Source: Alphaproteobacteria bacterium (lineage in GTDB: Bacteria; Pseudomonadota; Alphaproteobacteria; MPNO01). Taken from it: a stretch of 64,000 bases of DNA. Below are positions 31,102-62,835 of this stretch, piece after piece. The translations under genes were made by a program, and so were the position numbers. The notes beneath the pieces are model-generated. The model did no database searches. It was given only the letters and a program-made list of their open reading frames with translations, and was not told where the DNA came from. Location of the stretch: the NCBI GenBank assembly GCA_964291675.2, contig OZ219866.1:2144001-2208000 (forward strand), written 5' to 3'. The stretch's first letter is position 1. Every line of letters begins with the position of its first letter.

Positions 31102-31677
31102 CTACTCCGATACGTTCTCCGCCGACAGCTCGACCGCGTGCAGGAAAGAGCGGGCAGAGGAGCGCGGGCTCATCAACAGGAAGCTGTCCGCGCCGTCGCG
31201 CAGGACGATCGCCGCAAGATGCTCCATCGCGGTGCGCGCGACCCGGTCCACCGGAAAGGCCCGGTCGTCCAGATCGAGCGGACAGATCCGTTCGAGCGCG
31301 GCGCGCATGCCGGCGCCGGCGATTCGCAGCATGGCCCAGCTATCCGACTGGTCGGTCACGTAGGCGGCCGGACCGAGGGCGGCCTTGGCGGTGTCCGCCG
31401 CGCGGTCCGGGTCGGGTGGCGCGAACAGGATGAACACCTGGTCCGGCTGCATGCCGAGAATTCGTGCGGCATATTTGTTGCCGAGGCTGGACGCGCCGAT
31501 CTCCGGCCGCGCCGCGCCGAACCCGTCGGCGAGCGCGGCGGAGAAGGCCGCATCCTCGCCCCGGGGCACCGCCGCCGACACCAGGGCGAGCCCGGCGATC
31601 TCGGCGATGGCGACGGTGCCGATCGTCCTCTCGTAGCCGTCGAGCGGCGAACGGGATAGGAGCGAAGTCTCAGCCAC
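31102..31677 (-). CDS. soxG: sarcosine oxidase gamma subunit
   Basis: DQSDSW, CPLDL, ARTAMEHL, RSSARSF; follows soxA. Confidence 0.85.
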   Translation of the reverse strand: MAETSLLSRSPLDGYERTIGTVAIAEIAGLALVSAAVPRGEDAAFSAALADGFGAARPEIGASSLGNKYAARILGMQPDQVFILFAPPDPDRAADTAKAALGPAAYVTDQSDSWAMLRIAGAGMRAALERICPLDLDDRAFPVDRVARTAMEHLAAIVLRDGADSFLLMSPRSSARSFLHAVELSAENVSE

Positions 31678-34618
31678 GGAGCCGTTCCCCGTCCGGATCG
31701 TAGAATTGCGGCGAGACGATCTCGACCGGGAAATCGGTTCCGCGCATGGCGTCCCAGGCCCGGACCGTCTCGCCGATACGGGCCTTGCCGTTCTCGATGA
31801 AGCCGAGGCCGATCGACGTTCCAAGCATGGGCGAATAGGCGACCGACGCCATCCAACCCTGGTCGTTCGCGGCTTCCGGCGCCTCGCCATGCGCCAGGAA
31901 ATGGGCGCCGGCGGTGAGTTCCCGGCCGGGATCGACCGGCTTGAAGCCCATCATCTCCAGCCCGTCTTCGCGGTTCATCTTCGGCCGTTCGGAGAGCACG
32001 TTGCCGATACAGTCCTTGTTCTTCGACACCATGCGCTGCAACCCCAGCATGCGCGCCGTGGAATGGCCGTTCAGCTCGTTGCCGGCCGCGTGTCCCTTCT
32101 CGATCCGCATCACCCCGAGCGCCTCGGTGCCGTAGGCGACCGCATCGAACTCCTCGCCGGCCGCAAACAGCGCTTCCATCAGCGCCTCGCCGTAGCGCGC
32201 CGGCACGGCGATCTCGTAGGCCAGCTCGCCGGAGAACGAGATGCGGAACAGCCGGGCCGGCGTTCCGCCGCGCACGGCGATCTCGCCGCACGCCATGAAG
32301 GGGAAGGTTTCGTCGGAGATGTCGTGCTCGGGATCGACGATCTTCTCCAGCAGCCTTCGCGAGTTGGGGCCGGCGACGGCGAACTGCGCCCACTGCTCGG
32401 TCGCCGAGATCAGATGCACGTCGAGCCCGGGCCACAGGCACTGGCGGGCGAACTCCATGTTGCGGAACACCAGCACCGCGTTCGCCGTGGTCGTCGTCAT
32501 GACGAAATGGTTCTCGCCGAGCCGCGCCGTCGTGCCGTCGTCGTAGACGAAGCCGTCCTCGCGCAGCATCAGGCCGTAGCGCACCTTGCCGACCGCGAGT
32601 CTGGCGAAGCCGTTGGCGTAGATCCGGTTCACGAATTCCTGCGCGTCGCGTCCCTGGATGTCGATCTTGCCGAGCGTCGTCACGTCGCAGATGCCGACCG
32701 AGGAGCGGGTCTGCAACACCTCCCGGTCGACCGACTGCCGCCAATGGGTCTCGCCCGGCAGCGGAAACCATTGCGCGCGCAGCCACATGCCGGTCTCGAC
32801 GAACACGGCGCCCCGCCGTTCCGCCCAGTCGTGGCTCGGGGTCAGCCGGGTCGGTCGGAAGTCGCTGCCGCGCGAGCGCCCGCCGAAGGCCCCGATGGGG
32901 ACCGGCGCATAGGGCGGGCGGAACACGGTCGTCCCGGTCTCGGCGATGCCGCGCCCGGTCAGCCCGGCCATGACCGCGAGCCCCAGCACATTGGCCGTCC
33001 TGCCCTGGTCGGTCGCCATGCCGAGCGTGGTGTAGCGCTTCAGATGCTCGACCGAGCGGAAGCCCTCGCGATGCGACTGTTCGACGTCCTTCACCGTCAC
33101 GTCGTTCTGCAGGTCGAGCCACGCGCGGCCCTTGCTCTCCCGAACGTGCCAGAAGGGGGCGATGTCGCCCGCCTCGTCGCTCGCGCCGGGCGGATCGCCC
33201 GCGGAATGTGGAATGCCGAGCTCTCCGAGCGCCTCGACCGCCGACCGGTGGCCCTCTGCGAGCGCCGCCGCGGTCGTCAGGCTGCCGCCGGCCGCGCCGG
33301 CGACGGCCATGCAAGGGGGCAGGTCGCCGCCCGGCACGAAAGCGGCGATTTCTTCGCGCCAGACCGGCCTGCCCCCGTGATGACAGGTCAGGTGGACGTT
33401 CGGGCTCCAGCCGCCGGAGACCGCGAGGCAATCCAGCGCGATCCGTTCGCCGGTCGCCAGCGTCACGCCCTTCAGGCCGTGGCGGCCCCGGGTCGCGGTC
33501 ACGCGGCCCCCCATCGCGATCCGGGCGCCCGGGACCTCGAACGGGGGCGCGCGATCCCGCACGTCGACGACCGCGGCAACCGATACGCCCCTGGCGGCGA
33601 GATCCGCCGCCGTGCGCCAGCCGTCGTCGTTGTTGACGAACAGCCCCACGTGGCGGCCCGCGCCGACCGCGAACCGGTTGGCGTAGGCCCGCGTTGCCCC
33701 AGCCAGCATGATCCCCGGGCGGTCGTTGCCGGCAAACGCGATCGGCCGCTCGGTAGCGCCCGCGCACAGAATCGCGCGCTTGCTGTAGATCCGCCACAGG
33801 ATCTGGCGCGGTTTTCCGTCCGCCGCGGCCAGATGATCCGTCCGGCGTTCCAGCGCGCCGTAGATACCGTGGTCGTAGGCGCCGAACACCGTGGTCCGCG
33901 GCATCGGGCGGACCCTCTCCATGGACGCCAGCTCGCCTACCGCCTCGGCCGCCCAGGCGGCGCCGGGCCGGCCGTCGACCTCATGGGTCTCGGCATTGAG
34001 CCGCCCGCCCATGACGAAATCCTCGTCGGCCAGGATGACCCGCGCGCCGCTTCGCCCGGCGGCTAGCGCGGCGGCAAGCCCGGCCGGACCCGCGCCGACG
34101 ACCAGCAGGTCGCAATGCAGGAAGCCCTTGTCGTAGCTGTCGGGGTCGGCCTCGCCCGACAGGCGTCCCAGACCGGCGGCCTCGCGGATGGCGGGCTCGT
34201 AGACCCGCTCCCAGAAGCTCTTCGGCCACATGAAGGTCTTGTAGTAGAAGCCGGCCGAGAGAAAGGGCGCGAGCAGGTCGTTGACCGCCATCAGGTCGCA
34301 GCGCAACGAGCCGAGGTGGTTCTGGCTCCTCGCCTCCAGCCCGTCGAACAGCTCGGCGACGGTTGCCCGCGTGTTCGGCTCCCGGTGCGCGCCGCTGCGC
34401 AGCTCGACCAGCGCGTTGGGCTCCTCCGAGCCGGAAGCGAAGACGCCGCGGGGCCGGTGGTACTTGAAGCTCCGCCCGACCAGCCGGATCCCGTTGGCGA
34501 GCAGCGCCGAGGCCAGGGTATCGCCGGGATGGCCGGTCAGCCGCCTTCCGTCGAAGCGGAAGGCGAGGCTGCGGGCGCGGTCGATCGCGCCGCCGTCCAG
34601 CCGGAACGGGCCGCTCAC
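31670..34618 (-). CDS. soxA: sarcosine oxidase alpha subunit
   Basis: GDTLASALLANG, RSFKYHRPRG, GAGPAG, KRYTTLGMATDQG, GcvT-like C-terminus. Confidence 0.93.
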   Translation of the reverse strand: MSGPFRLDGGAIDRARSLAFRFDGRRLTGHPGDTLASALLANGIRLVGRSFKYHRPRGVFASGSEEPNALVELRSGAHREPNTRATVAELFDGLEARSQNHLGSLRCDLMAVNDLLAPFLSAGFYYKTFMWPKSFWERVYEPAIREAAGLGRLSGEADPDSYDKGFLHCDLLVVGAGPAGLAAALAAGRSGARVILADEDFVMGGRLNAETHEVDGRPGAAWAAEAVGELASMERVRPMPRTTVFGAYDHGIYGALERRTDHLAAADGKPRQILWRIYSKRAILCAGATERPIAFAGNDRPGIMLAGATRAYANRFAVGAGRHVGLFVNNDDGWRTAADLAARGVSVAAVVDVRDRAPPFEVPGARIAMGGRVTATRGRHGLKGVTLATGERIALDCLAVSGGWSPNVHLTCHHGGRPVWREEIAAFVPGGDLPPCMAVAGAAGGSLTTAAALAEGHRSAVEALGELGIPHSAGDPPGASDEAGDIAPFWHVRESKGRAWLDLQNDVTVKDVEQSHREGFRSVEHLKRYTTLGMATDQGRTANVLGLAVMAGLTGRGIAETGTTVFRPPYAPVPIGAFGGRSRGSDFRPTRLTPSHDWAERRGAVFVETGMWLRAQWFPLPGETHWRQSVDREVLQTRSSVGICDVTTLGKIDIQGRDAQEFVNRIYANGFARLAVGKVRYGLMLREDGFVYDDGTTARLGENHFVMTTTTANAVLVFRNMEFARQCLWPGLDVHLISATEQWAQFAVAGPNSRRLLEKIVDPEHDISDETFPFMACGEIAVRGGTPARLFRISFSGELAYEIAVPARYGEALMEALFAAGEEFDAVAYGTEALGVMRIEKGHAAGNELNGHSTARMLGLQRMVSKNKDCIGNVLSERPKMNREDGLEMMGFKPVDPGRELTAGAHFLAHGEAPEAANDQGWMASVAYSPMLGTSIGLGFIENGKARIGETVRAWDAMRGTDFPVEIVSPQFYDPDGERLRG

Positions 34619-34902
34619 CGGTCCCGCCCCCTGGCGAGCGCGACATCGCGCGCCAGCTCGACCCGGACGATCTCGTGGGTCAGCGTGTCGCGGGTCACCA
34701 CCAGCCAGGACCGGTCGCCCTGCTCGTGAAACCAGAGCTCGCGGTGCTCGCCGGCCGGGTTGTCGCGCAGATGGAGATAGTCGTGGAACCGCCGCCCCGC
34801 GTCGTCCGCCTGCCAGTCGGGCCGGTCGATCAGCGCGGCATCGCCCAGATAGACGAACTCCGCCGCATCGCGCGGGCCGAGCAGGGGATGGTCGATGATC
34901 AC
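34615..34902 (-). CDS. soxD: sarcosine oxidase delta subunit
   Basis: GPRD..EF.Y.GDA, RDNPAG, ELWFH, RDTLTHEI. Confidence 0.88.
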   Translation of the reverse strand: MIIDHPLLGPRDAAEFVYLGDAALIDRPDWQADDAGRRFHDYLHLRDNPAGEHRELWFHEQGDRSWLVVTRDTLTHEIVRVELARDVALARGRDR

Positions 34903-34911
34903 GCCGTCCCC

Positions 34912-36162
34912 CTAGTGCAGGTTCGGCTGGGCGCCGGCGCCGTTCTCGGCGATCGGGGCGCCGGTGGCGAAACGGTCGAGCCGCATCGCCGCGGCGGCGG
35001 GGTGCGGCGCGCCGGTCGCCACCAGATGGGCCAGGCAATAGCCGCCCGCCGGGATCGCCTTGAAGCCGCCATAGCACCAGCCGCCGGTGAAATAGAGGCC
35101 CTCGACCGGAGTCCTGTCGATGAAGGGCGAGCCGTCCATCGACATGTCGACCACGCCGCCCCACATGCGCAGCACCCGCGCCCGGCCGATCGCCGGCATC
35201 AGCGCCATGCCGCCCTCGCAGACATCCTCCACCGTCGGCAGATTGCCCCGCCGGGCGTATGAGTTGTAGCCGTCGAGATCGCCGCCGAAGACGATTCCGC
35301 CCTTGTCCGACTGGCATACGTAGAAATGCCCGGCCCCGAAGGTGATCGCGCCGTGGATGAGGGGTTTCAGCCCTTCGGTCACGCAGGCCTGCAGGACATG
35401 GCTCTCGATCGGCAGGCGTAGCCCGGCGAGCTCCATCACCCGGCTGGACGAGCCGGCGGCGCAGACCGCCACCCTGTTCGCGCCGATGGCGCCGCGCGTC
35501 GTCTCGACGCCCCGGCAGACCCCGTCCCGGATGTCGAAGCCGGTGACCTCGCAGTTCTGGATCAAATCGACGCCGCGCCGGTCGGCGCCCCTTGCATAGC
35601 CCCAGACCACCGCGTCGTGGCGCGCCGTGCCGGCGCGCGGTTGCCACAGACCGCCCTTGATGGGGAAGCGCTCGTTGTCGAAGTCGAAGAACGGGAACTT
35701 GCGTTGCAGCGCTTCGCGGTCGAGCAGCACCGCATCCACCCCGGCCAGGATCATGGCGTTGCCGCGCCGGGCGGCGGCGTCGCGCTGGGGATCGTTGTGG
35801 AGCAGGTTGACGATCCCGCGCTGCGAGACCATGGCGTTGTAGTTGAGCTCCCGTTCCAGCCCCTCCCACAGCTTCATCGACAGTTCGTAAAAATGCTGGT
35901 TGCCGGGCAGCAGATAGTTGGACCGGACGATGGTCGTGTTGCGTCCGACATTGCCGGAGCCGAGCCAGCCCTTTTCCAGCACCGCGACATCGGTGAGCCC
36001 GTGCCGCTTCGCCAGATAGTAGGCCGTGGCGACGCCGTGCCCGCCGCCGCCCACGACGACGATGTCGTAGCGCCGCCTGGGCTCCGGCTCGCGCCAGAGC
36101 GGCTTCCAGCCGCGATTGCCGGTCAGGCCTTGCCTGAGGATTTGCAGGGCGGAATAGCGCAT
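34912..36162 (-). CDS. soxB: sarcosine oxidase beta subunit
   Basis: GGGGHG, GNVGRNTTIVRSNY, TARHDAV, GGWCYGGFKA. Confidence 0.93.
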   Translation of the reverse strand: MRYSALQILRQGLTGNRGWKPLWREPEPRRRYDIVVVGGGGHGVATAYYLAKRHGLTDVAVLEKGWLGSGNVGRNTTIVRSNYLLPGNQHFYELSMKLWEGLERELNYNAMVSQRGIVNLLHNDPQRDAAARRGNAMILAGVDAVLLDREALQRKFPFFDFDNERFPIKGGLWQPRAGTARHDAVVWGYARGADRRGVDLIQNCEVTGFDIRDGVCRGVETTRGAIGANRVAVCAAGSSSRVMELAGLRLPIESHVLQACVTEGLKPLIHGAITFGAGHFYVCQSDKGGIVFGGDLDGYNSYARRGNLPTVEDVCEGGMALMPAIGRARVLRMWGGVVDMSMDGSPFIDRTPVEGLYFTGGWCYGGFKAIPAGGYCLAHLVATGAPHPAAAAMRLDRFATGAPIAENGAGAQPNLH

Positions 36163-36248
36163 CGCTCGGTCCACTGACCGGTCGATTGATGCGCCGGAGG
36201 GCGCGCCCATGCTTTCCTGAAAAGGACGTTTGTTTTAATATTTCGGAC

Positions 36249-37235
36249 ATGACGAAGCCGAACCCGGCCGCCCGCCGAATCGCCTTCCTGCTGGTCGAGG
36301 GATTCGCCCTGATGTCGTTCGCGGCCGTGACCGAGCCCTTGCGCGCGGCCAATTTGCTGGCCGGCAGGCGCATATACGAGACCTCCTTTTTCGCGGCGGG
36401 ATCGAGGCCCTCGGAGTTCCTCGACAGCTCGTCCGCGGCCTCGGTGGCGGTGGCGGCGCTCGGCGAAGCCACCGGCGAGTTCGACCTCGCCTTCGTCGTG
36501 GCCGGGGGCGATCCGGTCGGCTTCCGCGACGACGGCGCGTTCCAGTGGTTGCGGCGTCAGGCCCGGCACGGCTGCGTGCTTGGCGGGGTTTCCGGCGGTC
36601 CCGCGGTGCTCGCCAATGCCGGCGTCATGCGGAACCGGCGGATGACGCTTCACTGGGAGCATTCGGCCGCGCTGGAGGAGCGTCATCCCGGCCTGCTCCT
36701 GGAACGGACCCTTTACGTGGTGGACCGGGACCGCATGACCTGTGCCGGCGGCACGGCGCCGCTGGACATGATGCATGCCCTGATCGCCGAGCACCACGGT
36801 ACCGACTTCGCCCGCAGGGTCAGCGACTGGTTCATGCATACCGACGTGCGTCCCGCCGGCGGTCCGCAGCGGGCCGGTCTGGCGCAGCGCTACGGCACCA
36901 ACAGCCACACCGTGCTGGCCGCCATCGAGACCATGGAGAACCACATCGCCGACCCGCTCCCCTTGTCGGATCTGGCCCGGCTTGTCGGGGTGAGCGCGCG
37001 TCACCTGAACCGGCAGTTCGGCGCCGATCTGGGGTGCAGCGCCGGCGCGTTCTACCGCGATCTGCGCCTCGGCAAGTCGCGCGAGCTGTTGCGCCAGACC
37101 GCCCTGCCGGTGCTCGAAATTGCCATCGCGTCGGGCTTTTCCAGCGCCGCCCATTTCGCGACCGCCTACAGGAGGCGGTTCGGCGAGGCCCCGTCGCGCC
37201 ATCGCCTGGACGCGCTGCCGGCGAACCAATTCTGA
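36249..37235 (+). CDS. GlxA family AraC regulator
   Basis: EPLRAAN, TCAGGTAPLD, C-terminal AraC HTH (EIAIASGF). Confidence 0.9.
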   Translation: MTKPNPAARRIAFLLVEGFALMSFAAVTEPLRAANLLAGRRIYETSFFAAGSRPSEFLDSSSAASVAVAALGEATGEFDLAFVVAGGDPVGFRDDGAFQWLRRQARHGCVLGGVSGGPAVLANAGVMRNRRMTLHWEHSAALEERHPGLLLERTLYVVDRDRMTCAGGTAPLDMMHALIAEHHGTDFARRVSDWFMHTDVRPAGGPQRAGLAQRYGTNSHTVLAAIETMENHIADPLPLSDLARLVGVSARHLNRQFGADLGCSAGAFYRDLRLGKSRELLRQTALPVLEIAIASGFSSAAHFATAYRRRFGEAPSRHRLDALPANQF

Positions 37236-37260: not shown

Positions 37261-37399
37261 ATTGTTGAAGCATCTTCCGGAAACGGCCATGCTTCACCGG
37301 CGTGGACAGGCGCCGGCCGGCACTCGATCGGATGCAACCGGTTTCCACCTGCGGCCGGGCGCCAAGGACAACCGCTCGAGTATCTGGGGAGCCAAGGCC

Positions 37400-38755
37400 A
37401 TGGAAGGCAATCTCAACGCCATAACGACGGTATTCACCGAGTTCTACTACTGGGCGACCATCCCGCTGATGTTCTTCATCCATATCGGCTTCTGCATGTA
37501 CGAGGTCGGCGCCAGCCGGCGGCGCAACCACATGCACACGCTGATGAAGAACACGATGCTGATCCCGCTGGTGACGATCACGTTCTTCTTCTTCGGCTGG
37601 TGGCTCTACTGGGCCATGCCGAACGGACCATGGATTACCGGCGGTCTCGACCTCGAGGCCGCGGCGGCCAACACGGCCTGGTCGGAGACCATGGGCCCGC
37701 ATGCCGGCGACCGCATCACCGGGGTGTTCTGGGCGGCCTTCCTGCTGTTCTCCTGGACGGCGGCCTCGATCGTCTCGGGATCGGTGATCGAACGGATCAA
37801 TTCCGGCGCGTTCTGGATCCTGGCGGTGGTGATCGGATCGGTCGCCTGGATCATCGATGCCGCCTGGGGCTGGCACTATGGCGGCTGGATGGTGCAGGTG
37901 CTCGGCTATCACGACGCCTACGCATCGGGCGTGATCCACGCGATCGCCGGCGGCTTCGCGCTCGGCATCCTGTTCGTGCTGGGGCCCAGGCTGGGCAAGT
38001 TCGCCAAGGACGGCACGCCGCGGGATATCACGCCGCACAACCCGTGGATGGTGTGCCTCGGGCTGTTCTTCATCTATGCCGGGTTCTGGGGCTTCTACGT
38101 GGCCTGCAACGTGCCGCTCATCGATCCCCCGACCATCGACGGCCAGATCACGGGCGCGACCTGGACGGCGACGACGATCTACCTGACGCCGACCACGCTC
38201 GGCGCGATCACGGTGAACTTCCTGATGTCGCTGTCGGGCGGTCTCCTGGTCGGCTACCTGGTCTCCGGGGGCAACGGCTTCTGGACCTATTCCGGCGGCC
38301 TGGCGGGCATCATCACGGCGTCGGCGGGCAACGACCTCTACCACCCGATCCAGGCCATGATCATCGCCGGCTTCGGCACCTGGTGCGCCTACAAGCTGCA
38401 TCACTGGGTGGAGCGCAAGTACAGGATCGACGATGCGGTCGGCGCCGTGGCGGTGCACGGCTATGCGGGGTTTATCGGCCTGGTGATCTGCGGCTTCGTG
38501 CTGTGGGGCCATCCGAGCTCGCCCTATGAAGGCTACGCCACGATCAACCCGCTCGGCCAGTTCGTCGGCGCGATCATCATGTTCTTCGTGCTCGGTTTCC
38601 TGCCCGGCTGGATCGTCGCCAAGATCCTTGCCGCGGCCGGCATGCTGCGCATCCCCAAGCAGGTCGAGCTGCTGGGGCTGGACTTCCGGACCAACCGGGA
38701 AGAACAGGCGGCCGCGGCCGACGTGCGCGCCACCGAGAAGGAAGCAGCGGCCTGA
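37400..38755 (+). CDS. Amt family (methyl)ammonium transporter
   Basis: GFCMYEVG, SIVSGSVIER, SGVIH, LGPRLGK, IDDAVGAVAVHG. Confidence 0.9.
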   Translation: MEGNLNAITTVFTEFYYWATIPLMFFIHIGFCMYEVGASRRRNHMHTLMKNTMLIPLVTITFFFFGWWLYWAMPNGPWITGGLDLEAAAANTAWSETMGPHAGDRITGVFWAAFLLFSWTAASIVSGSVIERINSGAFWILAVVIGSVAWIIDAAWGWHYGGWMVQVLGYHDAYASGVIHAIAGGFALGILFVLGPRLGKFAKDGTPRDITPHNPWMVCLGLFFIYAGFWGFYVACNVPLIDPPTIDGQITGATWTATTIYLTPTTLGAITVNFLMSLSGGLLVGYLVSGGNGFWTYSGGLAGIITASAGNDLYHPIQAMIIAGFGTWCAYKLHHWVERKYRIDDAVGAVAVHGYAGFIGLVICGFVLWGHPSSPYEGYATINPLGQFVGAIIMFFVLGFLPGWIVAKILAAAGMLRIPKQVELLGLDFRTNREEQAAAADVRATEKEAAA

Positions 38756-39077: not shown

Positions 39078-40421
39078 TCAGCTCCAGGGGAACGGGCTGT
39101 TGCTCAGCGGGTGCAGCTTGCCCTCGGCGTAGCGGCTGAAGCGGAAGGGTTCGAGCAGGGCCTGCTTCTCGCCCATCATCTCGTCGGCCACCAGGTGGCC
39201 CACGCCGATCATCTTGAAGCCGTGATTGCTGTCGGCGACGACGTGGACGTTCTCGCAGAACGTGTCGAAGACCGGGAAGCTGTCCGGGGTGAAGCAGCCC
39301 AGACCTCCCGAGGGCTCCTTCCTGAACTTGCCGATCTGGCCGGAGAAGCGTTCCTGGCAGAAGGCGAGCGCCGAGCACCACATATGGGCGAAATCGTCGC
39401 CGACGATGAATTCCGGCGATTCCGGGCCGTAGGGATCGATCGCCACCTCGTCCGCCGGCGTCTTGACCTCGTACGGCATGGCGCCGCCCTGGACGCCGCC
39501 GAAATGGAAGTCCGGCTTGTAGTAGATGCCCCACGGCTCCTCGGCGATCAGCGACCCGTCGACGTCGGAGTGGAGCGGTGCGTCGGTGTCGACGTGGATG
39601 ACCGGCGGCATGGAGCCGTCGTTCAGCCTTTGCAGATCCGGGTCGACCCCGATGACGCCCTCCTCGAGGCACCAGTAGCGCCAGGTCGGGATGCCGTCAT
39701 GCATCCTGCCGCCGGCACCCTTGATGGAAACCTCCCGGGGCAACTCCAGCATGTCCCAGATCGTCTTGACCCACGGCCCGACCGCGACCACCACCTGCTC
39801 GCATCTGATGGTTCCCCGGTCGGTCACGACGCCGGTGACCGCATCGGAATTGCTGCCGCGCTCGAAGCCGGTGACCTCGACGCCCGTCATGATGCGCACG
39901 CCGTGCGCCTCGGCCTTGCCGGCCAGGCCGTAGACCGCGGCGGTGTTGTTAGCGTAGCCGCCTCTCTTCTCGTGCAGGACGGAGGTGATGCCCGCCGCGC
40001 GCCAGTCCGACAGCAGGCCCTTCATATAGGCCGTGCAGTCCTTCTCGCCCTCGATGAAATCGGAGTCGTAGCCGATCTCCCTCTGCTGCTCGTAGATGCT
40101 CGCGACATTCTCGCGCATCGCCTCGTGGCTGATCTGCATGTAGCCGACCGGGTGATAGCTGAACCCCCTGGGATCGGTCTCCCAGACGTCGACGCTGTGC
40201 GCCATCAGCTCGCGCATCGCCGGCTGGAAATAGTTGTTGCGCACAACGCCGCAGGCGATGCCGCTGGCGCCGGCGGCAATCGCGGTCTTGTCGAGAACCA
40301 GGATGTCCGTCCCGTTGGCCCGGCCGGACGCCTTGAGCCGTTCGGCCAGCCGCCAGGCGGTCGACAGCCCGTGAACCCCCGCGCCGATCACGACATGGCG
40401 GGCATGGGTCGGGAAAGCCAT
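39078..40421 (-). CDS. DAO-family FAD oxidoreductase (SoxB/MgdA-related, stand-alone)
   Basis: IGAGVHGLS, GASGIACGVVRNNY, TPDSFP, SNHGFKM. Confidence 0.85.
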   Translation of the reverse strand: MAFPTHARHVVIGAGVHGLSTAWRLAERLKASGRANGTDILVLDKTAIAAGASGIACGVVRNNYFQPAMRELMAHSVDVWETDPRGFSYHPVGYMQISHEAMRENVASIYEQQREIGYDSDFIEGEKDCTAYMKGLLSDWRAAGITSVLHEKRGGYANNTAAVYGLAGKAEAHGVRIMTGVEVTGFERGSNSDAVTGVVTDRGTIRCEQVVVAVGPWVKTIWDMLELPREVSIKGAGGRMHDGIPTWRYWCLEEGVIGVDPDLQRLNDGSMPPVIHVDTDAPLHSDVDGSLIAEEPWGIYYKPDFHFGGVQGGAMPYEVKTPADEVAIDPYGPESPEFIVGDDFAHMWCSALAFCQERFSGQIGKFRKEPSGGLGCFTPDSFPVFDTFCENVHVVADSNHGFKMIGVGHLVADEMMGEKQALLEPFRFSRYAEGKLHPLSNSPFPWS

Positions 40422-40559
40422 GGCGATACCCCTTCGGCAATGATGACTGTTGCGAGTGCGGGCGCATCCTGCGCTTTCCGAAACGAAGGAAAAACCATGT
40501 AGCGGACAGAAAACGTCACTATTCTGACGATCGCCGCCCATAATTCGGGAAACGCAACC

Positions 40560-41525: not shown

Positions 41526-41567
41526 GGCGTCTCGGTCTCCGCCGGACTCTTGCGGGCGTTCCTCGAT

Positions 41568-41601
41568 GTCATGCTTGGCGTGGGCCGACCATCCACGAGT
41601 T
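41568..41601. repeat. degenerate REP-like palindrome (GTCATG..CATCCACGAGTT)
   Basis: Same GTCATG/CATCCAC family as 24942 and 62871. Confidence 0.45.
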
Positions 41602-41678
41602 CATTCGGCGATCCGAACGGCGCAATAAGAGAAGGGGGCTATAGGCGACAGTATTCCGCTCATCCAGAAACCTGTAAC

Positions 41679-41999
41679 CTAACCGCCACAAAACACTTCG
41701 GACTCGAGCGGCGGAAGTTTCAGGTACTTCCGTTTGCTGTTAACCAAGAGCTCGACTTCCGAACACCACTCCAGGTGTCGAAGTCGGTATTCGGCCGCAA
41801 GTCTAGCCGACTCCTCCTTGGCGGCAATCGCAGCCTCCGCGCGTCGGTCCAGAGAATAGTCGCTCCCAAGGTAGAACGACACGCTGAACAGGATCACGAG
41901 TATCGATACGGCCTTGAGGCTTACGTTCTCGCGGTCCTTCGCAGCCCAAATGACTGCGACACTGAACGACGGGATGACCGCCGGGATAACGGCGCCCAA
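41679..41999 (-). CDS. hypothetical membrane protein in a lower-GC patch, start uncertain
   Basis: Hydrophobic segments; the frame stays open to about 42134 without an ATG. Confidence 0.4.
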   Translation of the reverse strand: MGAVIPAVIPSFSVAVIWAAKDRENVSLKAVSILVILFSVSFYLGSDYSLDRRAEAAIAAKEESARLAAEYRLRHLEWCSEVELLVNSKRKYLKLPPLESEVFCGG

Positions 42000-52084: not shown

Positions 52085-52107
52085 GGGTCGCCGCGCATCG
52101 GCGACCC
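52085..52107 (-). terminator. hairpin downstream of the tdm-nitrilase unit
   Basis: GGGTCGCCG / CGGCGACCC stem; weak U-tract. Confidence 0.4.
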
Positions 52108-52207
52108 GCTCGACTTCGAAGTTGACGCCTTTCGAGGCTATCACCCGGTTTCCGGGGTGTCCAGCCGATGCCCCTGCCCATCGGCGCGCCTGGTTGCCGG
52201 GACACCC

Positions 52208-55514: not shown

Positions 55515-56211
<697 letters not shown>

Positions 56212-56222
<11 letters not shown>

Positions 56223-57009
56223 GGCCCGCCCCGCTGTCGGCGGCCGCCCCGAGATAGGCCTCGATCACCGCCGGATCGTTGCGCACCTCCTCCGGCGCGC
56301 CTTCGACCAGAAGAGCGCCGAAATTCATCACCGTGATGGTGTCGCACAAATTCATGACCGCCTGCATGTCGTGCTCGACCAGCATGACGGTGACGCCGCC
56401 GTCGCGGATGCGCCGGACCAGCGACATCATGCGCCGGGTCTCCTGCGGGTTCATGCCGGTGAACGGCTCGTCCAGCAGCAGCACCTTCGGCTCCGCCGCC
56501 AGGGCGACCGCCATGCCGAGCATGCGCTGGTGCCCGTGCGACAGGTTGGATGCAAGCTCTCCGGCCAGGTCTTCGAGGCCGAAGAAGGCGAGCGTCTCCC
56601 GCGCCCTGGCGTCGGCGGCGCGTTCCGACGGCCGGTCGGTGCCGAGCAGGCGGCTCGCGAACCCGGCTCGGGCGGCGAGGTGGCGGCCGACCCGGACATT
56701 GTCGAGAACCGAGAGCTCCTGGAACAGGGTCGAGCCCTGGAAGGTGCGCACCAGGCCCATCGCGGCCAGCGCGCTGGTCTTGCGGCCGGAAACGTTGCGG
56801 CCGCGATAGAGGACCTGGCCCGCGTTCGGCGCGTAGAAGCCGCTGATCACGTTGAACGTCGTCGTCTTGCCGGCGCCGTTCGGCCCGATCAGCCCGTGGA
56901 TCGCCCCCGCGCGGACGGCGAAGCTGAAATTGTCGACCGCCACGAGGCCGCCGAACCGGCGGATCAGCCCGCGCGCCTCGAGGATCGGCTGCTCGCCCGG
57001 ACCGCTCAT
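56212..57009 (-). CDS. LivG-type ABC ATPase
   Basis: [33 protein letters not shown]. Confidence 0.92.
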
Positions 57010-58037
57010 GCCGCCCCGCTCCCGGCCGCCGCCGGGTCCCGCTCGCGGCGCCGCAGCCGCGCGCGCAGCCTGGGTCCCAGGCTCTCCAGCCCGTCCGGCA
57101 GATAGAGCACCGACAGGATCAGGATGGCGCCGTAGATCAGCGGCCGGACCGTGTCCATGCCGAGCCCGCGCAGCACGATCTCGTTGATCACGGTCAGCAC
57201 CACGACGCCGAGGATCGGGCCGTGCAGGGTCGCGGTGCCGCCGACGATCGCCCAGACCAGGACATAGACCATCTGGTCGACGCCGAACCTTGTGGGGTTC
57301 ACCGCCCCGACATAGTGGCCGTAGAGGCCGCCGGCGATCCCGGCGAAGAAGGACGCGATGACGAAGGCAAGCGTCCGGTAGCGGAAGGTGTCGACGCCGA
57401 CGGACTCGGCGAGCCTGTCCTGCCAGTGGATGGCGTGGAAGGTGAGCCCGATGCGCGACCGCTCGATCCGGTAAAGGACGTAGAGCGATGCCGAGACCAC
57501 GATCAGCGCCAGGAAGTAGTAGTTGACCGGCTCGTAGAAATCGATCTCCAGGAAGCCGATATCGATGTCCGGAAAGGCGTCGATCCGCTTCAGCCCCTTG
57601 GGGCCGCCGAACGGGTCGGTGAAGCGCTTCCAGATCAGGCGGATGATCTCGCCGGCCGCAAACGAGCCGATCAGGAAGTAAAACCCCTTCATGCGGAACA
57701 GCGGGAAGCTCAGGATCGCCGCGCCGGCCGCGGCGACCATGCCGCCCGCCAGCATGGAGACCGGCACCGGCACGCCGAGCCGCTTGGTCAGCAACGCGCT
57801 GGCATAGGCGCCGACCCCCATCATGACGACATGGCCGAGCGACCATTCGCCGGTGAGCGTGAGCAGGCGGTAGCTGCACACCAGCAGGACGTTGATCACC
57901 AGCAGGACGGCGATCTCCTGCTGCGAATAGCTCAGCAGATAGGGCAGCGCGGCGAGCGCCGCAAACAGCAGGAGCAGCCGAAGCCTTACCGCCATGCGCC
58001 ACACCGCGTTGCCCGCCGCTTCCGCCCGCTCAGGCAC
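57006..58037 (-). CDS. LivM-type ABC permease
   Basis: GEWSLGH, FGGPKG, AESVGV, VGG...LHGP; start 58037 or 57995. Confidence 0.88.
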
Positions 58038-58893
58038 GTTCCTTCGCCCCGAACAGGCCGGTCGGCCGCACCACCAGCACGGCAAGCATCAGCGCGAGGC
58101 CGACGATGTTGGCGATCACCCCGTCGAAGAAGGTGGTCACGAAGGTGTGCACGAAGGCGTAGAGCACGGCTGCGATCACCGCGCCTTCGAGGCTGCCGAT
58201 GCCGCCGACGATGATGATTATGAAGGCGGTGACGATGACCGAATGGCCGATATAGGGGGTGGGGCTGACCAGCGGCGCGGTGAGCGCGCCGGCGACGCCG
58301 GCCAGCGCGGCGCCGATGAACATGGCGATGCGCGCGGTCTGGGTCATCGAGATGCCCTGGAGCGCGGCGGCCTCCGAATCCTGGGCGCAGGCGCGCAGCG
58401 CCCAGCCGAATCTGGTGCGCTTGAGGAAGGCCCACAGCGCGACCAGCAGCAGAACGGCGGCGACGATGACGAGCAGCCGCTGATGGGTCAGGACCGCGCC
58501 GAAGATATCGAGCTTCTCCTGGGTCGGCGGCGGAACGTGGCCCATGCGCCGGCCGAAGCCCAGCACGACCAGGGTCTGCAGGATCAGCAGGAAGCCGATC
58601 GATGCGATCAGCCCGCTCAGCGGGTTGTCCCGCAGCGGCCGGAACATCGCGCGTTCCATGAACAGGCCGACGAGACCGACGAACACCAGACCCGCGGCGA
58701 CCGCGGGCAGAAAGGGGAAGCTCTCCTGGGCGTAGAGATACACCACGCAATAGGCGCCCAGCATGTAGAGCTCGCCATGGGCGAAGTTGATCACCCCCAT
58801 GACGCCGAAGATCATCACCAGCCCGACCGCGATCAGCGACATGTAGCTGGCGGCATACATGGCGTTGATGGCGGTCTGCCACAGCAGATCCAT
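58030..58893 (-). CDS. LivH-type ABC permease
   Basis: GVINFAHGE, GWALRA, AALQGI, GGIGSLEGA. Confidence 0.9.
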   Translation of the reverse strand: MDLLWQTAINAMYAASYMSLIAVGLVMIFGVMGVINFAHGELYMLGAYCVVYLYAQESFPFLPAVAAGLVFVGLVGLFMERAMFRPLRDNPLSGLIASIGFLLILQTLVVLGFGRRMGHVPPPTQEKLDIFGAVLTHQRLLVIVAAVLLLVALWAFLKRTRFGWALRACAQDSEAAALQGISMTQTARIAMFIGAALAGVAGALTAPLVSPTPYIGHSVIVTAFIIIIVGGIGSLEGAVIAAVLYAFVHTFVTTFFDGVIANIVGLALMLAVLVVRPTGLFGAKERA

Positions 58894-58928
58894 CGGGCAG
58901 CCTCAAACGCTGTGGCGGAGAAACGGAA

Positions 58929-58955
58929 CCGGGGCCGGGCAGAGCCCGGCCCCGG
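58929..58955 (-). terminator. 12-bp stem hairpin after the binding-protein gene (attenuator/mRNA stabiliser)
   Basis: CCGGGGCCGGGC-AGA-GCCCGGCCCCGG, followed by TTCCGTTT on the minus strand. Confidence 0.65.
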
Positions 58956-59003
58956 CAGCCGATCCAGGCGCGGCGGCGATGCCGCGCGGATTGCGTCGCC
59001 GGA

Positions 59004-60311
59004 TCAGCGCTGGTTCCACATCTGGCCCAGCGCGGTCATGTGCTTGATCATCAGCTTGCTGTGCTTCGCCCACCAGGCGGGGATGGACTTGAAGGCCTTG
59101 ATCCGCGCCTTGCCGTCCTCGATGACCACGACCGGCCAGTTGCCGACCAGGGCGTTGTCGATGCCGAACAGCTCCTTGCCCCACCACTTGGCGTCGCCGA
59201 AGGCGTGCTTGCCGGTGCCGTCGGCCTTCATCGCTTTCAGGACCGGGCCGGGCTCGGCGCTGCCCGCCTTGGTGGCGGCATCGGCCCACAGATCCATGAT
59301 CGAGGCGTATTCCCAGGAGACGGCGCTCCATTCCGCGGCGCCGAAGCGCTTGGCGTATTCGGCGTAGAACTCGTTCGGCTTGACGAAATTCACGTCCTTG
59401 CTGTTCAGCGCCGGGTCGTCGAAATCCGGGAACTGGAAGATGAAGCCTTCCATGAACTCCTTGGACGTCTTCTCGATGATCTTCTGGTAGAAGTCGGCTG
59501 TGCAGGAGATGATCTGCCCCTTGTAGCCCTGCTGGAACGCCTGTTCGCAAAGCGGGTGGACATAGTCGGCGTAGCAGGTGTCCAGGCACAGGATGTCCGG
59601 CTTCTTGGCCAGCAGCTTGGTCATCACCGGCGCGAAATCGGTGGTCGCCGGATCGAAGAACTCCGGCTTGTCGACCATCTCGATCCCGGCCGCCTCGAAG
59701 GCTGCCAGGTAGGTCGCCACCGAAGGCTTGCCGAGCGCGTCGTCCTGCGCGCAGATCGCCGCGGTCTTCAGGTCCTTCTTGTTCTCCGCCAGCCATTCGA
59801 CCCCGGTCACGTTGTAGATCGGATGCACCTCGCACGGCGCGAGCAGGGTCTTGGTCTCCGGCGACAGGTCGCTCGGCAGCAGCGTCGAGAACAGCATGCC
59901 CTCGCGTTCGGCGATCTTCTGCACGCCCGGCCAGGTGTCGCCCCCCAGCATCATGACGAACTTGACGCCGTCCTCCTTGATCAGCTTGGTGGCGCCGGTA
60001 CGCGCCTTGGCGGGGTCGTATTCGTTGTCGTAGCCGACGAATTCGATCTTGTGCGACTTGTCGCCGATCTTGACACCGCCCTTGGCGTTGACCCAGTCGG
60101 CCCAGATCAGGCAGCCATCGAGGCCGGGCTTGCCCCACGCCGCCACCGGCCCGGTGAGCGGCGCGAGGAATCCGATCTTGATGGTCGCGTCCGCGGCGAA
60201 GGACACGCGGGGAAAGCCCGCCCCCATCGCCGCCAGCGCCGCTCCGGAAGCCGCCGAAGTGCCGAGGAATTTCCGCCTGCTGATCTTTCCGTCGAGTGAC
60301 TTGCGAGACAT
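59004..60311 (-). CDS. Liv/HAAT-family ABC substrate-binding protein with Tat signal
   Basis: SRRKFLG Tat motif, IKIGFLAPLTG, VNAKGGV, TTDFAP; GGGAGG RBS. Confidence 0.9.
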   Translation of the reverse strand: MSRKSLDGKISRRKFLGTSAASGAALAAMGAGFPRVSFAADATIKIGFLAPLTGPVAAWGKPGLDGCLIWADWVNAKGGVKIGDKSHKIEFVGYDNEYDPAKARTGATKLIKEDGVKFVMMLGGDTWPGVQKIAEREGMLFSTLLPSDLSPETKTLLAPCEVHPIYNVTGVEWLAENKKDLKTAAICAQDDALGKPSVATYLAAFEAAGIEMVDKPEFFDPATTDFAPVMTKLLAKKPDILCLDTCYADYVHPLCEQAFQQGYKGQIISCTADFYQKIIEKTSKEFMEGFIFQFPDFDDPALNSKDVNFVKPNEFYAEYAKRFGAAEWSAVSWEYASIMDLWADAATKAGSAEPGPVLKAMKADGTGKHAFGDAKWWGKELFGIDNALVGNWPVVVIEDGKARIKAFKSIPAWWAKHSKLMIKHMTALGQMWNQR

Positions 60312-60659: not shown

Positions 60660-60737
60660 TTCCGCCGCCGAAGGGGATTGGACGATGCCGGCGACTCGGA
60701 GCGATGCGGACCGCCGGCCAGGACGGGGAGCGAGAAC

Positions 60738-62081
60738 ATGGCCAAACGGGTTGCGGTGATCGGCGCGGGGCCGTCCGGCCTGGCCCAGCTGCGGGCGTTC
60801 CACTCGGCGGCGGCCGGCGGGGCGGAGATTCCGGAGATCGTCTGCTTTGAGAAACAGGCCGACTGGGGCGGGCTGTGGAACTACACGTGGCGGACAGGGC
60901 TCGACGAATACGGCGAGCCGGTGCATTGCTCGATGTACCGTTACCTGTGGTCGAACGGCCCCAAGGAAGGGCTCGAGTTCGCCGACTATTCCTTCGAGGA
61001 GCATTTCGGCAGGCAGATCGCCTCCTACCCGCCGCGCGAGGTCCTGTTCGACTACATCGCCGGCCGGGCCAGGCAGGCCGGCGTGCGCGACCGGATCCGG
61101 TTCCTCACCCCGGTCCGGCGGGTCTCCTACGATTCCGGCTCCGGGCAATTCCGGGTCATCGCCCACGACCTGGCGAACGACCGGGAATACGGCGAGGATT
61201 TCGACCATGTCATCGTCGCGACGGGTCATTTCTCGACCCCCAACGTGCCGCATTTCGACGGTCTCGACGCGTTCAACGGCCGGGTCATGCACGCCCACGA
61301 TTTTCGCGACGCCGTCGAGTTCAAGGACAAGGACATCCTGATCATCGGCACCAGCTACTCGGCCGAGGATATCGGCTCGCAGTGCTGGAAGTACGGCTGC
61401 AAGTCGGTCACCGCCAGCCACCGCACCGCGCCGATGGGCTATGACTGGCCGGACAACTGGAAGGAGGTGCCGCTGCTGCAGAGGGTCGCGGGCAACACCT
61501 GCACCTTCAAGGACGGCTCGACGGCCGATGTCGACGCCATCATCCTGTGCACCGGCTATCTGCACCACTTTCCCTTCATGGCGCCGGAGCTGTGCCTCAA
61601 GACGGCCAACCGGCTGGCGACCGCGGATCTCTACAAGGGCGTGGTCTGGGTCGACAATCCGCGGCTGTTCTATCTCGGCATGCAGGACCAGTGGTACACC
61701 TTCAGCATGTTCGACGCCCAGGCCTGGTATGTCCGCGACATCGTGCTCGGCCGGATCGCGGTGCCCGACCGCGCGGCCCGCGCCGCCGACGTCGCCGACC
61801 GGGAGGCCCGGGAAGACGCCATCGAGGACGACTATGCCGCGATCCGCTACCAGGGCGACTATATCCGCGAGCTGATCGCGGACACCGATTACCCGAGCTT
61901 CGACGTCGACCGCACCGACGAGGCGTTCTTCGAGTGGAAGAAGTTCAAGAAGCAGGGGATCATGTCGTATCGCGACCACGGCCATCGCTCGGCCATGACC
62001 GGCACCGACGCCCCGGTCCACCATACGTCCTGGGTCGAGGAGATGGACGATTCGATGGAGAGCTATCTGCGGGACGGATAG
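60738..62081 (+). CDS. tmm: trimethylamine monooxygenase (bacterial FMO)
   Basis: [58 protein letters not shown]. Confidence 0.95.
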
Positions 62082-62100
62082 AGGAACCCCTTCCCCGACC

Positions 62101-62835
62101 ATGCGGGCTTCGCCGGCGGAATGGGAGTGGGACGCCCTCTCGGCCGCCGCGCTGGAGGCCTATCGCGCGGCGCGGCGCGAGGAAGCGGTGCATTTGTGGC
62201 GGCGCGCGGGCGCGCTCGCGCAGGATTTTCCGGTCGGCGACCCGCGCCGCGCGGCCAGCGAGAACAACGGCGCGCTGGCCTTGCTGATCGACCACGATCA
62301 CGACGGCGCCGCCCGGGCGCTGTCGTCCGCGCTCGCTTCGTGGGACGGGGCGCTCGCGTGGACGCGCGGCATGTCGGTCGCGGCCGTCGCCCGCAGCTCG
62401 CTCTTTCACCAGCGCCTGGAGCAGCGCCATGTCGAGACCTATGGCGACGTCCGGCGCGCGCGGCACCGCGAATTCCTGAGCGGCGCGGCCGCGCTGACCC
62501 GCTTCAACCTCGCCATCGCCGATCTCTTCCTGGACCGGGACGACACGGCCGACCGCCTGCTCGAAACCGCCCTCGCCGAACGCGAGCGGGCGTTCGGGCC
62601 GAACAACGGGGAGGTCGCCGAGATCGCGCGCGTGCTGTCGGGCCGGGCCGACGCCGCCGGGGACGATGCCCGGATGGAGGCCTACGACGCCAGGGTCCGG
62701 GGCGCCGTCGAGAACCGGGCCGCCGACGTGCTCGACGCCTGGCGCCGGGAACAGCCGCTGGAGATGAACGATACCCGTCGCCTCCTGGCGGCGGCCTATC
62801 TCACGGCGATCGTGCACGAGCGGGATTTTCTCTAG
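62101..62835 (+). CDS. TPR-like helical hypothetical protein
   Basis: DPRRAASENN, ARSSLFHQRLE; 19 nt after the tmm stop. Confidence 0.7.
   Translation: MRASPAEWEWDALSAAALEAYRAARREEAVHLWRRAGALAQDFPVGDPRRAASENNGALALLIDHDHDGAARALSSALASWDGALAWTRGMSVAAVARSSLFHQRLEQRHVETYGDVRRARHREFLSGAAALTRFNLAIADLFLDRDDTADRLLETALAERERAFGPNNGEVAEIARVLSGRADAAGDDARMEAYDARVRGAVENRAADVLDAWRREQPLEMNDTRRLLAAAYLTAIVHERDFL

Follow-up and report, generated by a model that had tools for sequence, protein, structure and literature searches.

A second, paralogous GmaS/MgsABC-like gene set, distributed complementarily to dmmABC, as a candidate route for dimethylamine in a sponge-associated alphaproteobacterium

The methylated-amine genes of Ruegeria pomeroyi DSS-3 lie in one cluster, SPO1548-1588, that holds tmoXWV, tmm, tmoR, tdm, gmaS-mgsABC, dmmDABC, tmaR and mgdABCD. 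DmmDABC, which we take to be the same enzyme family as the haem-dependent oxidative N-demethylase (HODM), the Pfam family names being in agreement, turns dimethylamine (DMA) into monomethylamine and formaldehyde, and GmaS, MgsABC and MgdABCD make up the N-methylglutamate pathway. In HTCC1062 ('Candidatus Pelagibacter ubique'), SAR11_1304-1316 read sox, glnT, gltB2, amt, glxBCD and glnT; the tables of Smith et al. 2013 that deal with this locus give SAR11_1305 (glnT), SAR11_1308 (gltB2), SAR11_1310 (amt), SAR11_1313-1315 (glxB, glxD) and SAR11_1316 (glnT) (PMC3870248). The unanswered question of what becomes of DMA in bacteria without dmmDABC goes back to 2013 or earlier, going by the passages of that paper on DMA (PMC3870248), and in 2017 the gap became the basis of a proposed marine methylated-amine bottleneck with consequences for DMA-derived aerosols, as set out in the relevant part of Lidbury et al. 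(PMC5520151). Here we describe a stretch of 64,000 nucleotides (G000:C2:2144001-2208000, referred to as the window; positions without a contig name are window positions) with a methylated-amine catabolic island, made of four modules, of a sponge-associated alphaproteobacterium. The step catalysed by DmmDABC is the one missing here, and our main subject is a set of genes, called type 1, that resemble glutamine synthetase (GS) and glutamate synthase (GOGAT) and might take its place.

The window has a G+C content of 68-70%, and raw lists of its open reading frames (ORFs) are rich in shadow frames; frames were chosen by third-position G+C and named by Pfam and NCBIfam. The type-1 set and the genes found with it are the following.

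46770-48239, minus strand: gmaS1, type-1 GS-like ligase of 489 residues, with a Gln-synt_C domain
45808-46836, minus strand: mgsA1, of the type-1 GOGAT-like trio
44978-45820, minus strand: mgsB1, of the same trio
43569-44945, minus strand: mgsC1, of the same trio, across which lie Glu_synthase, GXGXG and GATase_6/7 domains
43145-43555, minus strand: u43145, acidic protein of 136 residues, directly after type-1 mgsC wherever detected
42549-43103, plus strand: u42513, conserved protein without a family, part of the type-1 module
48538-49278, plus strand: regulator of the type-1 cluster, with GntR and FCD domains
52208-53053, minus strand: Nit-family C-N hydrolase (CN_hydrolase, E 1e-50), 36 nt downstream of tdm
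39078-40424, minus strand: DAO39078, FAD amine oxidoreductase of 448 residues, with a Pfam DAO match in the N-terminal half only
40560-41525, plus strand: second AraC/GlxA-type regulator (HTH_18 and weak DJ-1), divergent from DAO39078

On TIGR03105 (GmaS/GlnT), gmaS1 scores 303.6, below the cut-off of 469.6, whereas a canonical gmaS' of the same genome (C2:1757745-1759049) scores 668. The latter belongs to a canonical cluster 430 kb away (C2:1754797-1763517, L204; L and G numbers are our own for loci and genomes) that comprises mgsA', mgsB'C' (fused or adjacent), gmaS', soxB' and soxA'. The two ligases are 30% identical and differ in length (489 vs. 434 residues), and mgsC1, mgsB1 and mgsA1 are 50%, 33% and 32% identical to the host genome's canonical copies. 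With its GATase, GXGXG and FMN Glu_synthase domains the type-1 trio has the MgsABC domain set at 32-50% identity to the canonical proteins, and most genomes carry both types. These comparisons indicate that the gmaS-mgsABC of the window is a paralogous set. A dmmCBA-bearing Roseovarius island has the canonical set only, its gmaS being 59% identical to gmaS' and 30% to gmaS1. Canonical GmaS passes the cut-off in 50 of the 51 genomes that were searched, and nearly all of them, a SAR11-like genome included, also have a canonical mgsC with 71% or more identity to its Roseovarius counterpart. Because both are present nearly throughout, the type-1 set is an extra. A preliminary description of this DNA had listed tmm, tdm, soxBDAG, amt, gmaS-like and mgsABC genes, which the Pfam and NCBIfam matches bear out at family level; the gmaS-like and mgsABC genes are indeed present, though as paralogues, with the canonical cluster elsewhere.

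The surroundings of these genes were surveyed in two sets: 80 species loci retrieved with DAO39078 as query (DAO loci), and the 10-kb flanks of orthologues (73-100% identity) of the island's solute-binding protein (SBP) in 80 species genomes (SBP loci). Of the 80 DAO loci, 41 have gmaS1 and 20 have soxB as a neighbour of the DAO39078 homologue; the same flanks hold the GntR gene (38), u43145 (34, SAR11 genomes included) and, beside the type-1 cluster, u42513 (29). The commonest order is gntR(-) DAO gmaS1 mgsA1 mgsB1 mgsC1 u43145 u42513(-), and the gntR(-)/DAO/gmaS1 arrangement is conserved in many lineages; SAR11 single-cell genomes have the order tdm-DAO-gmaS1-mgsABC1-u43145-amt and the sponge clade has tdm-nit-gntR-gmaS1. 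The Nit gene, whose nearest NCBIfam model is deaminated-glutathione amidase at a score far below the cut-off, recurs beside tdm or the type-1 cluster in 14/80 SBP loci and 7/80 DAO loci, and also in L209 and L211. For u42513 there was no Pfam or NCBIfam match and for u43145 no family match, and the ESM Atlas gave no usable match for either. Across 25 sequences u43145 keeps 54 invariant columns; a predicted complex of mgsC1 with u43145 scored 0.00, which bears neither way on an interaction. By synteny and distribution, then, the island does have the non-canonical parts claimed for it. Of the unassigned genes previously lumped together, however, only those at 39078, 42549 and 43145 and the Nit gene share a conserved module with the paralogues. 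Between the second AraC gene and u42513, about 950 bp (41550-42500) have a weak, mixed coding signal, and the ORFs tried there (41550-42101 +, 41679-41999 -, 42098-42433 -) have no family match.

The enzymes that would supply DMA lie further along the island.

60678-62081, plus strand: tmm, trimethylamine monooxygenase, FMO-like; NF058570 812.4 bits against a cut-off of 675
53089-55485, minus strand: tdm, trimethylamine N-oxide demethylase; NF053776 1225 against a cut-off of 1100; DUF1989, GCV_T and GCV_T_C domains

Both clear curated equivalog cut-offs, and Tdm has the PF09347, PF01571 and PF08669 architecture. Family membership thus assigns the conversion of trimethylamine (TMA) and trimethylamine N-oxide (TMAO) to DMA to this pair: Tmm would oxidise TMA to TMAO, and Tdm would cleave TMAO, yielding DMA and a tetrahydrofolate-bound C1 unit. 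Beyond DMA, no dmm gene lies in the window. PF11927 (DmmC/HODM alpha) and PF22290 (DmmA) have no match in the whole 4.8-Mb genome, which nowhere places a PF11927 gene beside PF22290 genes, and tblastn with six DmmC-like proteins from other genomes returned nothing below E 0.1. The search works, since PF11927 was matched in 16 of 151 class genomes as a positive control, and the same searches detect dmmABC operons in 8/50 and 3/150 other genomes. A TMA/DMA dehydrogenase was recognised by an N-terminal FMN domain of the old yellow enzyme (OYE) type followed by ~350 residues of ADP-binding domains, ~730 residues in total; none of the four PF00724 (OYE-type) genes of the genome has this architecture, and a true trimethylamine dehydrogenase (TMADH) from L139 finds only 26% identity in it, over the FMN domain alone. 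The DMA step is missing from this genome by every known route, so that the absence of dmmDABC and of a DMA/TMA dehydrogenase, noted earlier for the window, extends to the genome. Genomes with tdm and without dmm are not unusual: they constitute the SAR11 'bottleneck' with DMA accumulation described in the corresponding section of Lidbury et al. (PMC5520151).

How type 1 is distributed relative to dmmABC was scored in two samples. The main sample, 50 of the 80 SBP-bearing genomes, was chosen before any result and searched genome by genome for PF11927, DAO, gmaS1, tdm, PF22290, TIGR03105 and mgsC; the second was an even sample of the class with 150 genomes, one per family. An operon was counted as dmmABC only if a strong DmmA match (PF22290, E<=1e-32), a DmmB-type match and a PF11927 match came together, and this operon-based table supersedes one drawn up from PF11927 only. 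PF11927 is clearly wider than Dmm and unfit as sole marker, and was rejected in that role; its match in G161, for example, stands by itself (L210:8730-9752) among Sel1, glycosyltransferase and AMP-ligase genes. The main sample has tdm in 47 genomes, the type-1 module in 39 and a real dmmABC operon in 8. The 47 tdm-positive genomes divide into 38 with type 1 only, 8 with dmmABC only, none with both and one with neither; if DAO is counted instead of the module, the figures become 30, 8, 0 and 9. In the class sample tdm occurs in 10 genomes, eight with gmaS1 and two with dmmABC, with no genome having both or neither. The distribution of type 1 is complementary to that of dmmABC, and because of this mirror image the type-1 module is the best candidate for the DMA step. 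The sequence data thus point, still tentatively, to the type-1 module rather than canonical gmaS-mgsABC as what may carry DMA onward. Undescribed DMA handling, as suggested in the preliminary description, is in this form a live and testable reading, with the complementary module as its substance; the MOSC trio and the gene at 62101, also named there, are no part of it. The paralogy of the module and its mirror-image distribution appear to be new, as neither was met in literature searches that covered main texts.

The chemistry of such a route, including the substrates of all type-1 enzymes, we infer as follows. The gmaS1 ligase would couple DMA to glutamate with ATP to give gamma-glutamyl-dimethylamide, from which the type-1 GOGAT-like complex would transfer the dimethylamino group to a 2-oxoglutarate skeleton to yield N,N-dimethylglutamate. 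DAO39078 (or Mgd) would then remove one methyl group, and Mgd would complete the breakdown of the resulting N-methylglutamate. Omega-amidase acts on 2-oxo-amides, and by analogy Nit might clear 2-oxo-amide by-products. Slightly more doubtful still is the widest version of the proposal, in which type 1, usually together with the flavoenzyme and Nit, would be an unrecognised DMA-assimilation pathway that begins with gamma-glutamylation of a secondary amine and, in SAR11 as in the majority of bacteria with tdm, stands in for the DMA monooxygenase (so that the marine 'bottleneck' would be only apparent), and the Liv system of the island the first ATP-binding cassette (ABC) importer for TMA.

DMA could instead be a dead end: the cell would gain one C1 unit from TMA or TMAO and excrete DMA to the host or to Dmm-bearing neighbours; type 1 would then be a second assimilation system for methylamine or another primary amine, and its anticorrelation with dmmABC a matter of lineage history. 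We regard this as rather unlikely. It leaves unexplained that, of the tdm-positive genomes, 38 of the 39 that lack dmmABC have type 1 but none of the 8 that possess it, and a second methylamine system would be superfluous where canonical GmaS and mgsC are already so widespread. In addition, type 1 and dmmABC are each found among Rhodobacterales-type as well as among Hyphomicrobiales-type genomes, and the module adjoins tdm in distant lineages. Nonetheless, several observations that favour a dead end also weigh against a DMA route through type 1. A quick tree of 41 Tdm proteins, built by maximum likelihood, has only 3 changes of the type-1/dmmABC label, and a single clade, within which one type-1 genome also falls, takes in seven of the eight dmmABC rows; since kin are not independent, the 46 genomes amount to only about three clean replacements. 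This tree took 5 of the 20 tdm-positive genomes of the sponge clade, has G197 on a very long branch, and leaves out G173 and G182 (fragmentary tdm), G028, G079 and G105 (class sample, partial or fragmentary tdm) and G184 (no tdm found). Type 1 also occurs without tdm in 6 of the 14 class-sample genomes that carry it, which leaves room for a role apart from the breakdown of TMAO. A full-text literature search brought up neither a bacterial pathway through the proposed intermediates nor a precedent for gamma-glutamylation of a secondary amine, and we know of no GS-type ligase or GOGAT-type enzyme demonstrated to work with a secondary amine. DMA accumulation is part of the published bottleneck for SAR11 and other dmm-less bacteria, and the section concerned states that evidence of DMA oxidation by SAR11 is lacking and that no member is known to carry it out (PMC5520151).

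Further points count against the DMA route itself. In the family-level sample the Fisher test gives p 0.02 with only 2 dmmABC genomes among the tdm-positive ones. DAO is absent from 8 of the 39 type-1 genomes, and truly so at the syntenic site in four relatives. The marker completeness of 93.7% limits what the absence of dmm can mean, although the 4.81-Mb host assembly consists of only 2 contigs. Finally, in the proteome tables that cover HTCC1062 under nitrogen limitation, SAR11_1305 and SAR11_1308 are less abundant while SAR11_1304 goes up (PMC3870248).

This last observation leads to the flavoenzyme of the module. The AlphaFold2 model of DAO39078 (pLDDT 86.8) has as its top Foldseek matches heterotetrameric SoxB and monomeric sarcosine oxidase (MSOX), with a TMq of 0.70 and ~20% identity, and the protein is therefore predicted to be a flavoenzyme of the SoxB/MSOX fold. 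Its family is large (at least 8,000 relatives, with generic names only), and our literature searches found no description of it in N-methylglutamate clusters. By gene order, DAO39078 would correspond to SAR11_1304. In the parts of Smith et al. 2013 on this locus, SAR11_1304 (sox) is the second most induced protein under nitrogen limitation and is suggested to be an amine demethylase or deaminase, the DMA route being called unknown (PMC3870248); the passage of Lidbury et al. 2017 on the same protein calls its role in DMA oxidation unconfirmed (PMC5520151). The idea of a flavoenzyme for DMA is thus already in print.

Could DAO39078 on its own be a DMA oxidase or dehydrogenase that forms methylamine and formaldehyde, leaving the type-1 GS and GOGAT to take up methylamine? 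The modelled fold is that of secondary-amine N-demethylating flavoenzymes, and the SAR11 order tdm-DAO-gmaS1 parallels the order of the pathway. Of the 39 type-1 genomes 31 have DAO, as do 30 of the 47 tdm-positive ones and none of the eight with dmmABC; DAO also has no match at E 1e-50 in a plasmid collection in which the tdm control found 141 records. Together with the induction of SAR11_1304 and its proposed role in the passages just cited, these points speak for the enzyme. Nevertheless we consider such a role for DAO alone improbable, as nine of the 47 tdm-positive genomes have neither DAO nor dmmABC and eight of those nine have the type-1 module, which fits the pattern better (46/47 vs. 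38/47). In four close relatives the cluster is intact while DAO and its AraC gene are jointly absent between amt and u42513, which makes enzyme and regulator a separable add-on. Moreover, mgd-type operons begin with DAO in six or more of the 80 DAO loci (L042, L069, L078, L089, L092 and L115), so an N-methyl amino acid would suit it as a substrate too.

Between the GntR gene and nit lies another group of genes once counted among candidates for the missing step, the MOSC trio.

49268-52237: insertion of 2,970 bp that carries the trio, delimited by DNA alignment with relatives
49286-50308, minus strand: [2Fe-2S]/FAD/NAD reductase, by its domains
50376-51002, minus strand: FMN protein with a Flavodoxin_2 domain
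51051-51875, minus strand: protein with MOSC_N and MOSC domains

If Tmm N-oxygenated DMA, the nitrone could give formaldehyde and N-methylhydroxylamine, and the trio, as a putative molybdenum-cofactor reductase, might reduce the latter to methylamine and so close the gap. The domains (MOSC_N, MOSC, FMN flavodoxin-like, FAD/NAD and 2Fe-2S) and a MoaC in the genome are compatible with this, as is the position of the trio between nit and the type-1 cluster, and the domain set presumably matches that of the E. coli YcbX-CysJ N-hydroxylamine reductase system. The MOSC protein has an Arg-Cys pair near its C-terminus, of which the cysteine is a putative ligand of the cofactor; the protein has no match among PDB sequences. 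Relatives with the same island have no trio there, however: in L120, L038 and L136 gntR joins nit directly, with ~40-60 bp in place of 49268-52237. Among 31 MOSC-homologue loci, 12 retain the trio and only 3, all close kin, have it next to tdm; elsewhere it is found amid unrelated genes (PhyH, FAD oxidase, UbiD), or the MOSC gene sits alone beside a hydantoinase. A part for the trio in DMA breakdown is therefore most improbable, contrary to what had been supposed; it is a recently inserted cassette resembling an N-O bond reductase, outside the core route and probably unrelated to it. Scans for repeats and for promoters or terminators around the insertion gave nothing above chance. UbiD-family genes flank the trio in relatives, and a UbiD-family decarboxylase is also found in the 8040-22876 region of the window.

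The final step of the proposed route would fall to an operon at the near end of the island, with its regulator and a channel.

31102-31677, minus strand: soxG, weakly recognisable
31670-34651, minus strand: soxA (SO_alpha_A3/GCV_T), SoxA score 1335 against a cut-off of 1164
34615-34902, minus strand: soxD, Pfam SoxD
34912-36210, minus strand: soxB, SoxB score 657 against a cut-off of 529
36186-37235, plus strand: AraC/GlxA-type regulator (DJ-1_PfpI and HTH_18), divergent from the mgd operon
~37289-38755, plus strand: amt, ammonium/methylammonium channel (PF00909, E 1e-51), start ATG 37289 or 37400

This sox-type operon has four subunits, two of which (SoxB and SoxA) pass their cut-offs. Its proteins share 68-80% identity with the products of the AraC-linked mgd operon in the dmmABC-bearing Roseovarius island, and only 36-46% with the host genome's other sox copies. 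Because of the identity to Roseovarius mgdABCD, soxGADB (31102-36210) is read as canonical mgdDCBA, N-methylglutamate dehydrogenase. A third soxB/soxA pair at G000 C2:1717967-1722439 brings the host genome to three sox-type operons. Amt would move ammonium or methylammonium, and mgdABCD, the AraC regulator and Amt would together serve the last step and the handling of N-methylglutamate and ammonium or methylammonium. The best NCBIfam model for the regulator is GbdR, below its cut-off; in R. pomeroyi TmaR is an AraC-type regulator upstream of mgdABCD (PMC13390433), and the window regulator occupies the position of TmaR.

TMAO uptake is canonical and merely relocated. The preliminary description had missed tmoXWV in the window, correctly, but a set lies on the other contig of the same genome (C1:969843-974120), consisting of an OpuAC-type SBP, a fused permease and a CBS-domain ATPase. 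The SBP matches PDB 4XZ6 at E 3.3e-117, which is R. pomeroyi TmoX according to the part of the source that lists the structure (PMC8918994). The search of the whole genome for dmm and tmo genes that had been called for, on the ground that finding both would undo the idea of a variant pathway, therefore turned up tmoXWV and no dmm. A set of this type (OpuAC-type binding protein, CBS-domain ATPase and 674-residue fused permease) adjoins tdm in relatives; in L126, where all three genes are Pfam-confirmed, binding protein, ATPase and permease are 86%, 82% and 92% identical to the C1 genes, and at least five relatives (L121, L122, L126, L130 and L131) have a weak ABC-ATPase match beside tdm at the corresponding spot. 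Since the same transporter adjoins tdm in relatives, the C1 genes have moved, probably by way of an insertion element; a Mutator-family transposase lies 1 kb from them and FolD ~4.6 kb beyond tmoX (C1:969843-976400; L203:7837-14356). TMAO would thus also enter through the canonical TmoXWV of the other contig.

An undescribed transporter was nonetheless rightly suspected in the island, although the five-gene Liv-type ABC importer between tdm and tmm (55515-60311, minus strand) had itself been overlooked.

55515-56222, minus strand: livF, HAAT/Liv-type ABC importer domains
56212-57009, minus strand: livG, HAAT/Liv-type ABC importer domains
57006-58085, minus strand: livM, HAAT/Liv-type ABC importer domains
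58030-58893, minus strand: livH, HAAT/Liv-type ABC importer domains
59004-60311, minus strand: Peripla_BP_6 binding protein with a predicted Tat signal
62101-62835, plus strand: u62101, accessory protein of the tmm/ABC module, with a weak TPR_12 match only

With a Peripla_BP_6 protein, two BPD_transp_2 permeases and two ABC ATPases, the operon belongs to the HAAT family. The flanks of the 80 SBP loci hold tmm in 55, tdm in 40 and either in 56, and tmm or tdm is present in 47 of the 63 loci that span 15 kb or more. Two loci that lack tmm, L139 and L189, instead have after the operon a 731-residue TMADH homologue that matches 1DJN over its full length at E 6e-291. Because two unrelated TMA-consuming enzymes, Tmm and TMADH, share this importer as neighbour, TMA rather than TMAO is its most likely cargo, and the system is a candidate for bringing TMA into the cell. 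The model of the binding protein has a cluster-B fold, and Foldseek returned generic cluster-B binders only (Leu/Ile/Val, urea and aromatic-acid binders, ~20% identity), with no clue to the ligand. Our literature searches, SPO1552-1558/1571-1578 included, found no description of a tmm-linked Liv-type system, and a 2024 paper names MttP and TmaT as the only proteins so far implicated in the transport of TMA by microbes (PMC11708041).

The gene at 62101, earlier thought to stand in for a DMA-step gene, goes by SBP-locus synteny with the tmm/ABC module: close homologues are found in 22 of the 80 loci, and a distant family (~200 residues; 38% identity over 120 residues) in a further 28, mostly between livM and livF. 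Eight roseobacter-type and related loci (L184, L186, L188, L190, L192, L193, L195 and L197) have, upstream of the complete ABC operon, an orphan paralogue of the binding protein (48-55% identity) that is flanked by tmm and a GntR gene. This paralogue may act as a sensor or as an additional binding protein, and it fits the 'gene of unknown function' noted between tmm and tmoR (PMC13390433). A stand-alone GcvT-type protein of ~365-420 residues adjoins the tmm/ABC module in 7/80 loci (e.g. L154:16005-17111, L169:15694-16953 and L139:2423-3520), among them Methyloligella genomes without dmmABC; six of the seven resemble DmmD, and that of L176 is an apparent split-off C-terminal part of tdm (74% identical). 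The neighbours of the ABC operon in Methyloligella (aminotransferase and kinase-like) have no homologues of interest in the host genome.

The closest relatives of the window genes are metagenome-assembled Alphaproteobacteria, many of them sponge-derived, and among public sequencing runs the stretch is found mainly in sponge metagenomes. One sponge metatranscriptomic library contains short contigs, mostly 90-95% alike, over mgs, MOSC, flavodoxin, tdm, livM and tmm, which we take as a sign of presence and not of transcription, drawing no reading from depth or gaps. Upstream, the genes of 8040-22876 (an ABC permease, TctA, urocanase, DctM and DctP of a TRAP transporter, and the decarboxylase mentioned above) have no connection with methylated amines. 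The island is bordered by three genes of the amidohydrolase family and one for a TPR protein (25076-30899 and 62989-63855), and further amidohydrolase paralogues lie elsewhere in the host genome. Of its 12 GCV_T matches in all, large GcvT-domain genes at G000 C2:2103439-2106876, 2274553-2277159 and 2417178-2419736, 40-270 kb from the window, have open frames of ~820-870 residues, the size of DAO-GcvT fusions such as dimethylglycine dehydrogenase.

These results narrow the gap in DMA breakdown to a defined set of six to nine genes that is the mirror image of dmmABC in each tdm-positive sample and is present in SAR11, sponge symbionts and marine methylotrophs. If the proposed route is true, metagenomic estimates of the ocean's DMA-degrading capacity are far too low. 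The tmm-linked Liv-type system, for its part, is a widespread and testable candidate for TMA uptake.

Among described systems, LivJHMGF and UrtABCDE share with the importer the five-gene HAAT architecture and the cluster-B fold of the binding protein, for which no solved relative exceeds ~24% identity; its genomic partners, however, are tmm, tdm or TMADH and not amino-acid or urea genes. The BCCT carrier TmaT, which with MttP makes up the TMA transporters in print, is unrelated to it. The MOSC trio presumably has the same redox domain set as E. coli YcbX-CysJ and eukaryotic mARC, but its domains are split differently over three genes and no solved relative was found by sequence. The type-1 genes share the domain set and order of gmaS-mgsABC in the N-methylglutamate pathway; they differ in that gmaS1 falls below the family cut-off and in that the module has extra conserved genes and exists beside a complete canonical pathway. 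Compared with R. pomeroyi, for which Roseovarius and three similar genomes served as stand-in sequences, the window genome likewise has tmm and tdm, has mgdABCD with an AraC regulator next to it, and encodes a TMAO transporter of the TmoX type. It differs in lacking dmmDABC, in having tmoXWV on another contig and GS/GOGAT paralogues ~30-50% identical to the canonical proteins, and in the addition of DAO, u43145, u42513, Nit and the MOSC trio to the island. SAR11 single-cell genomes match the window proteins at 54-77% identity. HTCC1062, linked to the window through the gene order in the published tables on this locus and not through sequence comparison (PMC3870248), has the same two-set layout, with a monomeric SoxB-like enzyme, GS-like ligase, GOGAT-like trio, small protein and amt in one set and canonical glxBCD-glnT in another, and likewise no dmm. 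In SAR11 the flavoenzyme gene comes immediately after tdm and before that of the ligase, whereas in the window it is a separate add-on that has an AraC regulator to itself and lies at the opposite end of the cluster, 2 kb beyond it.

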